Shown here: positions 18,650 through 25,769 of the stretch, in pieces
Layout of the letters: every line of letters starts with the position of its first letter
Position numbering within the stretch: the stretch's first letter is position 1
NCBI GenBank assembly: GCA_951406725.2
Contig: OX597829.1
Span: forward strand, 26,350,001 to 26,414,000
DNA length: 64,000 bases
Direction: 5' to 3'
Source of the DNA: Octopus vulgaris
Taxonomy: Eukaryota
The notes under the pieces: generated by a model
Seen by the model: only the letters and a program-made list of their open reading frames with translations
The model's database searches: none
What the model was told of the DNA's origin: nothing
Position numbers and translations under genes: made by a program

Positions 18650-19400
<751 letters not shown>

Positions 19401-19947: not shown

Positions 19948-19957
19948 TGATGATGAT
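19592..19957. repeat. Compound (AAT)/(AAC)/(GAT) trinucleotide microsatellite
   Basis: Directly visible; source of the poly-N/I/L ORFs. Confidence 0.97.
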
Positions 19958-20180
19958 GGTGGGGGGACAAACACATACACGCATACACACACAAACATAC
20001 ACACACACACACGTACATACATACACACACAGATATATATATATATATATATATATATCAACAATAAAGGAACGGCCATAATAGGCCATTCACCCACTAG
20101 AAATAACAGCCAAAGCTTCAACCGCAAATAAAAGTTAATTCAGTAAACCAGGAGAAAATTAAAAAAACATTTACCCTGTA

Positions 20181-20287
20181 ATTTCTTATACGATATACCG
20201 TTTCATCTGCTGATTAATGGTAAACTAACCTGATTAAATTAAATCAAGCCAATCTTCCACAGGCCCTCAGATTCTTCAGTAAGAAAT
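20181..20287 (-). ncRNA. Type I hammerhead ribozyme (array copy 1)
   Basis: Reverse complement of the motif at 22059-22165. Confidence 0.88.
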
Positions 20288-20673
20288 AGCCCAAGACGGA
20301 ACAGATATTTTCACGAGGCATTTCCGACGTTGCCAAGTTTATATCTGACCTAAAATTTTCAAATCGTCGCACTCGCGCCAAATTTATCGGCAGCAAATAA
20401 ATATAAGCCGTCGATTCCATTACGGAATTAACCAGAAAATTCATAATTAATCAATATAGGCTGCCAAAAAAAATTTTGTAGAATTCTTTTGCCACCAGCG
20501 GCCTAGTAGGAAAAAATTAAAATAGTCATAGACCATTTTTAAGTTCAACATCAACAATAAAGGAACGGCCATAATAGGCCATTCACCCACTAGAAATAAC
20601 AGCCAAAGCTTCAACCGCAAATAAAAGTTAATTCAGTAAACCAGGAGAAAATTAAAAAAACATTTACCCTGTA

Positions 20674-20780
20674 ATTTCTTATACGATATACCGTTTCATC
20701 TGCTGATTAATGGTAAACTAACCTGATTAAATTAAATCAAGCCAATCTTCCACAGGCCCTCAGATTCTTCAGTAAGAAAT
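20674..20780 (-). ncRNA. Type I hammerhead ribozyme (array copy 2)
   Basis: Reverse complement of the motif at 22059-22165. Confidence 0.88.
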
Positions 20781-21166
20781 AGCCCAAGACGGAACAGATA
20801 TTTTCACGAGGCATTTCCGACGTTGCCAAGTTTATATCTGACCTAAAATTTTCAAATCGTCGCACTCGCGCCAAATTTATCGGCAGCAAATAAATATAAG
20901 CCGTCGATTCCATTACGGAATTAACCAGAAAATTCATAATTAATCAATATAGGGTGGCAAAAAAAAATTTGTAGAATTCTTTTGCCACCAGCGGCCTAGT
21001 AGGAAAAAATTAAAATAGTCATAGACCATTTTTAAGTTCAACATCAACAATAAAGGAACGGCCATAATAGGCCATTTACCCACTAGAAATAACAGCCAAA
21101 GCTTCAACCGCAAATAAAAGTTAATTCAGTAAACCAGGAGAAAATTTAAAAAACATTTACCCTGTA

Positions 21167-21273
21167 ATTTCTTATACGATATACCGTTTCATCTGCTGAT
21201 TAATGGTAAACTAACCTGATTAAATTAAATCAAGCCAATCTTCCACAGGCCCTCAGATTCTTCAGTAAGAAAT
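21167..21273 (-). ncRNA. Type I hammerhead ribozyme (array copy 3)
   Basis: Reverse complement of the motif at 22059-22165. Confidence 0.88.
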
Positions 21274-21657
21274 AGCCCAAGACGGAACAGATATTTTCAC
21301 GAGGCATTTCCGACGTTGCCAAGTTTATATCTGACCTAAAATTTTCAAATCGTCGCACTCGCGCCAAATTTATCGGCAGCAAATAAATATAAGCCGTCGA
21401 TTCCATTACGGAATTAACCAGAAAATTCATAATTAATCAATATAGGGTGGCAAAAAAATTTTGTAGAATTCTTTTGCCACCAGCGGCTAGTAGGAAAAAA
21501 TTAAAATAGTCATAGACCATTTTTAAGTTCAACATCAACAATAAAGGAACGGCCATAATAGGCCATTCACCCACTAGAAATAACAGCCAAAGCTTCAACC
21601 GCAAATAAAAGTTAATTCAGTAAACCAGGAGAAAATTTAAAAAACATTTACCCTGTA

Positions 21658-21764
21658 ATTTCTTATACGATATACCGTTTCATCTGCTGATTAATGGTAA
21701 ACTAACCTGATTAAATTAAATCAAGCCAATCTTCCACAGGCCCTCAGATTCTTCAGTAAGAAAT
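21658..21764 (-). ncRNA. Type I hammerhead ribozyme (array copy 4)
   Basis: Reverse complement of the motif at 22059-22165. Confidence 0.88.
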
Positions 21765-22058
21765 AGCCCAAGACGGAACAGATATTTTCACGAGGCATTT
21801 CCGACGTTGCCAAGTTTATATCTGACCTAAAATTTTCAAATCGTCGCACAATATATTGATTAATTATGATTATTATTTAATTGATTAATATATGATTAAT
21901 TATGAATTTTCTGGTTAATTCCGTAATGGAATCGACGGCTTATATTTATTTGCTGCCGATAAATTTGGCGCGAGTGCGACGATTTGAAAATTTTAGGTCA
22001 GATATAAACTTGGCAACGTCGGAAATGCCTCGTGAAAATATCTGTTCCGTCTTGGGCT

Positions 22059-22165
22059 ATTTCTTACTGAAGAATCTGAGGGCCTGTGGAAGATTGGCTT
22101 GATTTAATTTAATCAGGTTAGTTTACCATTAATCAGCAGATGAAACGGTATATCGTATAAGAAAT
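22059..22165 (+). ncRNA. Type I hammerhead ribozyme (array copy 5); predicted cleavage after GUA at 22157
   Basis: Helix I auuucuua/uaagaaau (8 bp perfect); CUGAAGA; helix II aucug/cagau enclosing ~58 nt with inner hairpin gauuggcuugauu/aaucagguuaguu; GAAA; helix III ACGGUAUAUCGU (near-palindromic); UA. Confidence 0.9.
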
Positions 22166-22550
22166 TACAGGGTAAATGTTTTTTAAATTTTCTCCTGGTT
22201 TACTGAATTAACTTTTATTTGCGGTTGAAGCTTTGGCTGTTATTTCTAGTGGGTGAATGGCCTATTATGGCCGTTCCTTTATTGTTGATGTTGAACTTAA
22301 AAATGGTCTATGACTATTTTAATTTTTTCCTACTAGGCCGCTGGTGGCAAAAGAATTCTACAAAATTTTTTTGCCACCCTATATTGATTAATTATGAATT
22401 TTCTGGTTAATTCCGTAATGGAATCGACGGCTTATATTTATTTGCTGCCGATAAATTTGGCGCGAGTGCGACGATTTGAAAATTTTAGGTCAGATATAAA
22501 CTTGGCAACGTCGGAAATGCCTCGTGAAAATATCTGTTCCGTCTTGGGCT

Positions 22551-22657
22551 ATTTCTTACTGAAGAATCTGAGGGCCTGTGGAAGATTGGCTTGATTTAAT
22601 TTAATCAGGTTAGTTTACAATTAATCAGCAGATGAAACGGTATATCGTATAAGAAAT
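22551..22657 (+). ncRNA. Type I hammerhead ribozyme (array copy 6)
   Basis: Same as 22059-22165 with one substitution in the helix II insert. Confidence 0.9.
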
Positions 22658-22880
22658 TACAGGGTAAATGTTTTTTAAATTTTCTCCTGGTTTACTGAAT
22701 TAACTTTTATTTGCGGTTGAAGCTTTGGCTGTTATTTCTAGTGGGTGAATGGCCTATTATGGCCGTTCCTTTATTGTTGATGTTGAACTTAAAAATGGTC
22801 TATGACTATTTTAATTTTTTCCTACTAGGCCGCTGGTGGCAAAAGAATTCTACAAAATTTTTTTTGCCACCCTATATTGA

Positions 22881-22933
<53 letters not shown>

Positions 22934-22964
22934 GGCGGGCTTCTTTCAGATGATGATGATGATG

Positions 22965-23175
22965 ATCTTTTTTCTTTCACTTGTTTCAGTCATTTGACTG
23001 CGGCCGTGCTGGGGTACCGCCTTCAAGGGGCGTAAGGAATCGACTCCAAGGTTTAATTTTTTAAAGTCTAGTACTTATTCTATCGGTCTTTTTTGCCGAA
23101 CAGCTGGTTTACGGAGACATAAACACCCCAACATCGTTTGTCAAGTGCTGGTGGGGAACAAACACAGACACAAAG

Positions 23176-23237
<62 letters not shown>

Positions 23238-23400
23238 TTACGACGTGATACTTTCAGTTTCCGTGTACCAAATCCACTCATTAGGCTTTGGTCGGCCCGA
23301 GGCTATAGTAGAAGACACTTGCCCAAGGTGCCATACAATGGGACTGAACCTAGGACCATGTGGTTGGTAAGCAAGCTTTTTACCATACTGCCATGCCTGC
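22965..23400 (-). mobile_element. SINE family A
   Basis: Reverse-complement homology with an internal (CA)n. Confidence 0.8.
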
Positions 23401-24739: not shown

Positions 24740-25312
24740 TACATACACACACAAATATAAATGATGTGAAAAAACAAGGTGATCCAGGGAAATGGAATAA
24801 AATACAGTCCGGCTAAAATAGAAGATAGGAGGAATGGAAATATAAAGAGGCAAAAATGAATGAAAAAAATATAAGTTAAAATAAAACAAAAATTAGTTAT
24901 GGTTTCAAATTTTAGCTCGGGGTTAACAGAGGTGCTGGATATCGACCCCCCCCCCCCAGTACCAGACTCGAAAGAACGAAAGGTACAGTCGGCCCCTGTG
25001 GAATTGGAACGAAATTCCGTTAGGCATTTTGTCCGGCGTATTAGGTAGTGCAAAGAAAAATAATAAAAGTAGAAAGAGGGCGAAGTCAATAAAAATAGTG
25101 TGAAATCAATGAAATGGAAGTTTTAAGAAAATAATTTTTTATAACGTAAGGTGTACTAGCCATCTGAATGTGGCTAGCCACTGGGGGTGGGGTGTTACTG
25201 ATGCTTTTAGCCCCAGGCGATCAACGTCACCAGATGGACTTTATACACTATCTCAGTGCCCTTGTGTTATTTGCAAAGGGAGGTCATCCTCCCTCGAGGA
25301 CCTAAGTACTAC

Positions 25313-25355
25313 ATACGGACTATAGTTTCAAGGTAATTGCCTCTCGTCAACGCAT
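25313..25355 (-). ncRNA. Type I hammerhead ribozyme (C3U variant)
   Basis: augcg UUGACGA gagg-caauua-ccuu GAAA CUAUAG UC cguau; all three helices pair, palindromic helix III, GUC site. Confidence 0.78.
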
Positions 25356-25568
25356 GGTAAGCACCGGTCTTCGATGAAGGAGTCTCCATACGCTCGACAA
25401 CGTAAGGTGTACTAGCCATCTGAATGTGGCTAGCCACTGGGGGTGGGGTGTTACTGATGCTTTTAGCCCCAGGCGATCAACGTCACCAGATGGACTTTAG
25501 ACACTATCTCAGTGCCCTTGTGTTATTTGCAAAGGGAGGTCATCCTCTCTCGAAGACCTAAGTACTAC

Positions 25569-25611
25569 ATACGGACTATAGTTTCAAGGTAATTGCCTCT
25601 CGTCAACGCAT
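25569..25611 (-). ncRNA. Type I hammerhead ribozyme (C3U variant), second copy
   Basis: Identical to 25313-25355. Confidence 0.78.
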
Positions 25612-25769
25612 GGTAAGCACCGGTCTTCGATGAAGGAGTCCCCCTGCAAATAATATATAATGTTTTTCACAGCAACCACTGTCACTGATTTAGAAAAACT
25701 GTCTGAAAGCAATAATAAATCTCTGAACGAGATATAAACAGTAACCGCTCGACAAGTTATCCTTTATAT

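Follow-up and report, generated by a model that had tools for sequence, protein, structure and literature searches.

Our favoured reading, which we hold with fairly good confidence, is that a non-coding hammerhead retrozyme has inserted as two arms into a TA tract of the Octopus vulgaris genome, and that such an element cuts its own RNA and is copied by an enzyme borrowed from Penelope-like elements (PLEs), probably lap after lap from a closed one-unit template. The insertion lies in a stretch of 64,000 nucleotides, hereafter the window. Assignment of its 492-nt unit to the non-LTR retrozymes, that is, to the non-autonomous PLEs as already proposed for retrozymes (bioRxiv 10.64898/2026.07.22.740005), is supported by every genomic feature that we tested: a tandem unit of a few hundred bases with a GC content below 50%, one type I hammerhead per unit, independence of any ORF, and dispersal in a PLE-bearing genome. 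An autonomous PLE has an ORF with reverse transcriptase (RT) and GIY-YIG domains, and the 492-nt unit has none. The candidate retrozyme put forward in the earlier note is thereby upheld, as a non-coding tandem unit with one type I hammerhead each, hundreds of dispersed ORF-independent copies and a PLE footprint. The very young family to which it belongs, family A, offers countable genomic evidence on circular-template copying and on in vivo cutting, the latter being described for PLE hammerheads as an open question (PMC11167929). Two precise start sites can be named, and intact, near-identical PLE ORFs occur in the same genome, so that an in vitro reconstruction of the cycle is feasible; the priming of a short RNA at both DNA ends would also be relevant to research on retroelement-based insertion.

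Two arrays were delimited by TRF, at 20057-21849 (period 493, 3.6 copies) and 21888-22885 (period 492, 2.0 copies), both with 99% matches, and the near-identical units with six hammerheads reported in the earlier note were thus recovered. The arrays are inverted, their 5' ends lying head-to-head across a scrambled 38-bp insert (21850-21887), and (AT)n target tracts flank them on the left (20033-20058) and on the right (22884-22932). Unit numbering starts at the predicted cut, with window positions 22158-22649, one full 492-nt monomer from cut to cut on the plus strand, as the reference unit. The short-end arm (20057-21849, minus strand) comprises 3.6 units, from a 5' truncation at unit position 309 to a 3' end at 132 (20057); the long-end arm (21888-22885, plus strand) comprises 2.0 units, from a 5' truncation at 224 to a 3' end at 235 (22885). 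All six hammerheads lie inside the TA tract, four on the minus strand at 20181-20290 (predicted cut between 20189 and 20188), 20674-20783, 21167-21276 and 21658-21767, and two on the plus strand at 22056-22165 and 22548-22657. The junction insert resembles reiterated pieces of unit 222-240 and may be a product of RT jitter. A structured domain is predicted at unit 42-262 (22199-22419, plus strand), with a similar fold predicted in sister family B, and it contains both fixed start sites; the 'tail' of about 103 nt between these sites (unit 133-235; 22782-22885, plus strand) includes a strong hairpin at unit 185-221. GC content is about 35%. As the earlier note had observed, RT or endonuclease coding is not recognisable, the longest ORF within the unit being 66 aa, and no LTR layout was seen at the 492-nt unit. 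The host site is the TA tract of a common SINE-like repeat (18833-19400, 19957-20058 and 22884-23400), a similar copy of which, without insertion, lies about 1 kb upstream of the array.

The fold of the ribozyme agrees with its first description: an 8-bp helix I (ATTTCTTA/TAAGAAAT), helix II ATCTG/CAGAT, GAAA, a near-palindromic helix III and GUA, with a motif layout that places the predicted plus-strand cuts after 22157 and 22649. CUGAAGA occurs at 22067 and 22559 on the plus strand and at 21756, 21265, 20772 and 20279 on the minus strand, and all six motifs are also matched by R1, an RNA model built in this analysis. The Rfam check suggested in the earlier note gave no such agreement: there was no hammerhead at the gathering score in the window and none at E<=10 in 20000-23000, presumably because helix II bears a 58-nt extension; the remaining Rfam matches in the window are TA-repeat noise. 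The conserved core and three helices of a canonical type I hammerhead are nevertheless present, with loop 1 formed by the rest of the monomer. Two features count against an active ribozyme: the usual G10.1-C11.1 closing pair of helix II (PMC4209133) is absent, helix II closing with A-U in both A and B, and the predicted hammerhead fold lies 1.7 kcal/mol above the minimum.

Several lines of evidence indicate that this fold has been conserved. The catalytic core is unchanged in 259 of 262 copies, and two-sided changes between family A and sister family B affect 11 of 26 pairs, compared with 0-3 in slid controls. These compensatory changes fall in helices I, II and III. The covariation alignment, in which 98% of cells pair, consists of two A and six B copies and essentially represents two lineages, so the changes amount to about 11 events and not 22. 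In A the centre of the helix III palindrome is TATA, whereas older A subfamilies and B have TGCA; it is self-complementary throughout and pairs only in a duplex of two ribozymes: the computed self-duplex has -13.6 kcal/mol, versus -0.2 for the hairpin. Animal type I hammerheads have been described in a dimeric mode (PMC4209133), with which the palindrome and the predicted duplex are in keeping. Upstream of the hammerhead, blocks at unit ~298-305 and ~361-368 (window 22455-22462 and 22518-22525) are also conserved between A and B and are possible promoter elements.

Family A is young and dispersed. Searching the genome at the DNA level yielded 716 candidates, 39 of which were scored and proved about 99% identical; copies are spread over many contigs, with unique flanks and fixed ends. 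Exact junctions number 181 for the short end and 661 for the long end, the latter count including older subfamilies, to which most of the 30 long-end loci viewed belong (about 88-94% identical). The genome-wide copy-number check proposed at the outset therefore yields a young dispersed family with 181 short-end and 661 long-end junctions. The unit was found in independent sequencing runs as well, and it or its older variants also occur in four runs under other organism labels. Twenty runs contain the stretch, all as assembled contigs, and 14 of these are putatively RNA. Of four that were inspected, one contains a single 523-nt contig (492+31), which a ring and a tandem fit equally; in another, a contig extends from the short end into TA. 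Sister family B, first met beside one A copy, has a unit of about 490 nt that is 70% identical to A, and it retains both end sites, homologous to those of A. More distant relatives of the unit, at 70-78%, occur in L219, L162:7381-7479, L170 and L138, indicating a wider clan beyond A and B.

The layout seen in the window recurs across the family. In a first, search-derived set of 39 loci, one of which duplicates another, 31 are two-armed, and 30 of these pair an end at about 132 with one at 228-242 (the exception is L037). Among 100 scored loci of a junction-selected set, 77 are two-armed, and all 77 second arms scored end at 228-242, the script having sought second-arm ends in that range only; the raw listing holds no second 132 end. 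Arms thus start at either of two fixed sites, separated by about 103 nt, and a two-armed insertion uses both. Targets are (TA)n; a TA junction was a selection criterion for the short-end set but not for the 39-locus set. Where the two cDNAs meet head-to-head, the joint shows microhomology or a few reiterated letters, and among the insertions there occurs a mini-element consisting of 132+238. This combination of two arms, two sites and a tail is a PLE insertion footprint: PLE insertions have been described as a tandem plus an inverted 5'-truncated copy with a tail of 30-40 nt on one end (PMC8557442), and in vitro work has found that the RT starts at two internal sites and that both DNA strands are cleaved and extended (PMC11167929). 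At five or more junctions near the template 5' edge (L305, L283, L279, L225 and L032), TTTTTAAA is reiterated, with 44-232 bp between the arms. As PLE RTs are described as sisters of telomerase (PMC8557442), telomerase-like repeat addition by the RT is a tempting reading of these repeats, slippage or read error being the alternatives. A 57-bp match to the unit in the GIY-YIG locus L071 was considered as a link between a PLE and the unit and was rejected, being an independent mini-insertion.

The positions at which arms break off at their 5' ends are far from uniform. From the list of 181 short-end junctions we took the first 100, on contigs C1-C10, dropping one short arm with an N gap (L274) and two long arms (L299 and L304), and correcting five arms by hand (L039, L269, L299, L286 and L268). 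Of 176 arm 5' ends, 55 fall between -2 and +30 of the predicted cut, compared with 12.9 expected from the bases traversed (binomial p about 1e-20). Per 1000 nt, 7.2 ends fall in the interval around the cut and 1.6 immediately upstream of it, and no distant 32-nt window exceeds 3.1; the edge at the predicted cut itself is sharp (53 ends in unit 1-30 versus 4 in 481-492). In 16 of 77 loci the two arms share a stop at the cut (odds ratio 10.7, p 3e-5), and 6 of 22 one-armed loci end there too (p 0.004). Cut-site stops account for 41 of 149 first passes and 14 of 117 later laps, the latter in excess of an assumed 4% background (p 3e-4). There is a weaker second hot spot at unit 209-240, and in family B, in a sample biased by its query, many ends lie at 11-32. 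Most simply, many templates would end 5' at the predicted cut, and the two arms of a locus would be copies of one molecule; the pile-up suggests that the hammerhead RNA cuts itself in the animal.

Variation within and between loci was counted at 117 loci, with homopolymer positions masked. Sixty-three variants are fixed in every covering copy, 117 are found in a single copy and seven are mosaic; 46 more, covered by one copy only, stand outside these classes. Among the fixed variants, 43 span both arms and eight are private to one locus. Nineteen haplotypes were distinguished among the 56 loci with a full unit. Against one-unit copying, a few loci, such as L058 and L068, are mosaic and in part repeat every three units. 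The multimers are unlikely to stem from template jumping, since 278 of the 287 cut junctions traversed are perfect. A one-unit bottleneck per insertion explains the pattern of fixed and single-copy variants and is predicted by rolling-circle copying; a copying of retrozymes from circular RNA by PLE enzymes has been proposed in the discussion of PMC7229834. Together, these genomic counts point to in vivo cleavage and to a one-unit template that is copied repeatedly. We lean towards a closed-monomer step, in which multi-lap copying would produce the clonal tandem arms, and all the counts could be accommodated by rings occurring alongside multimers and cut linear RNAs, or by a nicked ring that its hammerhead helices keep shut. 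Fixed variants include six A>G and no T>C changes, compared with nine of each among single-copy variants (p 0.05), and G>A is equally skewed; the A>G skew is a weak hint of RNA editing.

If the enzyme is borrowed, the genome offers several possible lenders. At least three young PLE families are present, with ORFs of 775, 781 and 1312 aa, the first two with Pfam matches to RT and GIY-YIG and the third, which has no Pfam match, placed by motifs and weak similarity. All three insert in TA with two end sites, at offsets of roughly 30-55 nt, and the young 775-aa RT-GIY-YIG family lies in (TA)n with a layout like that of A, its ends falling at 677 and ~705-723. Between the unit and the three families there is no meaningful DNA similarity, the best chance-level matches being 12-22 nt, and none of the three contains a convincing hammerhead. 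A Penelope ORF always adjoining the unit, named in the earlier note as a sign of an ordinary pLTR, was found at 0 of 145 A loci, so that none of the three PLE families checked has the unit as its ordinary pLTR. A PLE-like match exists somewhere at 15 of these loci, in 14 separated from it by a TA tract and in one 1 kb away. Among the A loci examined, no fusion between the young family and a PLE was seen. In family B, by contrast, L149 (duplicated as L150) joins the short end of a B arm head-to-head with the long end of a 775-family arm at one TA site, and in L151 a B arm is fused head-to-head to an older relative of the 1312-aa family. Such fusions fit a use of the enzyme in trans, and deletion between neighbouring insertions could also generate them. 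By analogy with the anole PLE (PMC11167929), the partner enzyme of family A is likely to be of Penelope type.

The PLEs themselves have some further features. The extremely young 775-aa elements (L194, G000:C5:5976500-5986499, and L199-L213) form a 4271-bp tandem unit with copies 99.5-100% identical, in which a 454-aa ORF lies upstream of, and overlaps, the RT-GIY-YIG ORF, and they are without a hammerhead core. In the 781-aa PLE (L110:1581-5282, L099-L118), a 479-aa ORF that matches no known family lies upstream, and TGATGACGTC repeats abound in the pLTR; the pLTR of the 1312-aa PLE (L357:1763-5698) has a TA microsatellite and a T run.

A cycle consistent with these observations can be proposed. 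The hammerhead strand of the arrays would be transcribed, and the hammerheads, in predicted pairs formed via the palindromic helix III, would cut after GUA to leave an RNA whose 5' end is unit position 1, as we infer from the 5' ends that pile up there. By analogy with the enzyme of PMC11167929, a PLE RT-GIY-YIG protein would nick both (TA)n strands, and each DNA end would prime one cDNA, at fixed internal site 132 in one case and ~238 in the other. If the RNA is linear and cut, synthesis of both would run out at the cut and leave the 132+238 mini-element; if the monomer is closed, either by ligation or as a nicked ring that the hammerhead helices keep together, several laps would give clonal tandem arms. 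Head-to-head joining of the cDNA ends, via microhomology or a few reiterated letters, would complete the insertion. More tentatively, and at a little less than an even chance, the insertions might be read as a fossil record of the whole cycle, in which a monomer is primed twice by a PLE dimer at a nicked TA tract, linear RNA leads to mini-insertions and a ring to clonal arms, the RT adds TTTTTAAA in a telomerase-like manner on reaching the template 5' edge, and the hammerhead resides only in the parasite, its helper PLEs having none.

One alternative dispenses with the ring: linear read-through multimers would be cut at some hammerheads only, and clonality would come from homogeneous donors or later homogenisation. 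The stops at the cut on later laps (14/117) count in its favour and against our best explanation, as they are expected for linear multimers with a cut 5' end and unexpected for a covalently closed ring; uncut multimers account equally well for the perfect junctions, the seven mosaic variants also fit, and multimeric RNAs are known in axolotl (PMC7229834). We nevertheless regard this alternative as unlikely in view of the bimodal variant frequencies (117 single-copy and 63 fixed, with 7 intermediate), the 43 cases of fixation across inverted arms, and the 19 haplotypes in 56 loci, which need many one-unit bottlenecks, homogeneous donors pushing the question back by one step. It is very unlikely that the pile-up reflects a transcription start, an RT pause or fold-back microhomology at unit 1-40, with a hammerhead that is slow or inert in vivo. 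A hairpin is indeed predicted at unit 11-40, the same segment holds a TTTAAA palindrome that is reiterated at several junctions, there is the weaker hot spot at 209-240, and many PLE hammerheads are poor cleavers (PMC4209133). However, the edge is sharp exactly at the predicted cut (53 ends against 4), stronger hairpins yield no more than 3.1 ends per 1000 nt, one-armed loci stop at the cut too, and the fold has been kept across 30% divergence.

That the unit is the pLTR of some other autonomous PLE, the arrays being its truncated remains, gains a little from the scope of the search, which scored 150 of 6136 GIY-YIG candidates and ran model R1 on 63 sources, and from the homology of Xenopus retrozymes to pLTRs (bioRxiv 10.64898/2026.07.22.740005). 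Arms of 8-9 consecutive full units without an ORF, the 0 of 145 loci that adjoin a PLE ORF, and the failure of R1 to match a pLTR in the PLE loci examined render it extremely unlikely. The near-identity and tandem order of the units might finally suggest ordinary satellite DNA or an assembly artefact, and this explanation is refuted, with practically no probability left to it, by dispersal over many contigs with unique flanks and fixed ends, by occurrence of the unit in independent sequencing runs and by the covarying ribozyme fold.

Comparison with known systems places the octopus unit among the metazoan non-LTR retrozymes of coral, mussel and axolotl (PMC7229834) and of vertebrates (bioRxiv 10.64898/2026.07.22.740005), with which it shares a non-coding tandem unit of a few hundred bases, one type I hammerhead, low GC, dispersal and co-existing PLEs, and for which a ring template and PLE mobilisation have been proposed. 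The octopus unit differs in its 58-nt helix II extension and A-U closing pair, and the descriptions consulted in these sources make no mention of inverted insertions with two arms, of fixed start sites, of 5' ends that lie at the cut or of clonal arms. The earlier statement that the unit is long for this class holds against the 150-450 bp given in PMC7229834, and fails against the 51-972 bp of bioRxiv 10.64898/2026.07.22.740005. With EN+ PLEs and their tails (PMC8557442; anole Poseidon, PMC11167929) it has in common the tandem plus inverted 5'-truncated copy, the one-end tail, two internal RT start sites and AT-rich or (TA)n targets, and it differs in having no ORF and a tail of about 103 nt versus 30-40. 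For the anole PLE in vitro, PMC11167929 reports, in the results consulted, that cleavage was not needed, that no reads began at the cut and that uncut RNA was dominant, whereas the genomic ends in octopus point to cleaved RNA as a frequent template; among Xenopus retrozymes, eight of nine tested did not cleave, according to bioRxiv 10.64898/2026.07.22.740005. The anole and Xenopus results both weigh against our favoured reading. The Chlamys elements such as MRC1 are likewise non-autonomous PLEs with multicopy head-to-tail insertions, but as described in PMC8557442 they generally share 3' sequence with autonomous partners and belong to a clade without canonical hammerheads, whereas in the octopus unit a hammerhead is present and similarity to the three tested PLE families could not be detected. 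In the literature searched, which excluded subscription papers, Repbase, Dfam and supplements that possibly list cephalopod examples, neither this family nor a pile-up of 5' ends at a retrozyme cut was described, and the main text of PMC13282606 contains neither 'ribozyme' nor 'hammerhead'. The features that set this family apart are its long helix II, a 103-nt tail, candidate helpers that lack hammerheads, and signs of cleavage and of one-unit templates that can be counted in genomic copies.

Other repeats of this genome show partly similar traits. At 25143-25655 of the window lies another young repeat, a 256-bp tandem pair without a convincing hammerhead core; genome-wide it has 2447 candidates, 40 of which were scored at 97-100%, some of them tandem or inverted, with one fixed end next to TA, and it is possibly another non-autonomous PLE-type element. 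Several unrelated hammerhead-like motifs were noted in L151:5990-6800, L100, L107, L117, L163 and L072; they include a tandem family of about 470 bp with an inverted arm, inserted beside a B copy, and many hammerhead-like families are thus present in this genome.
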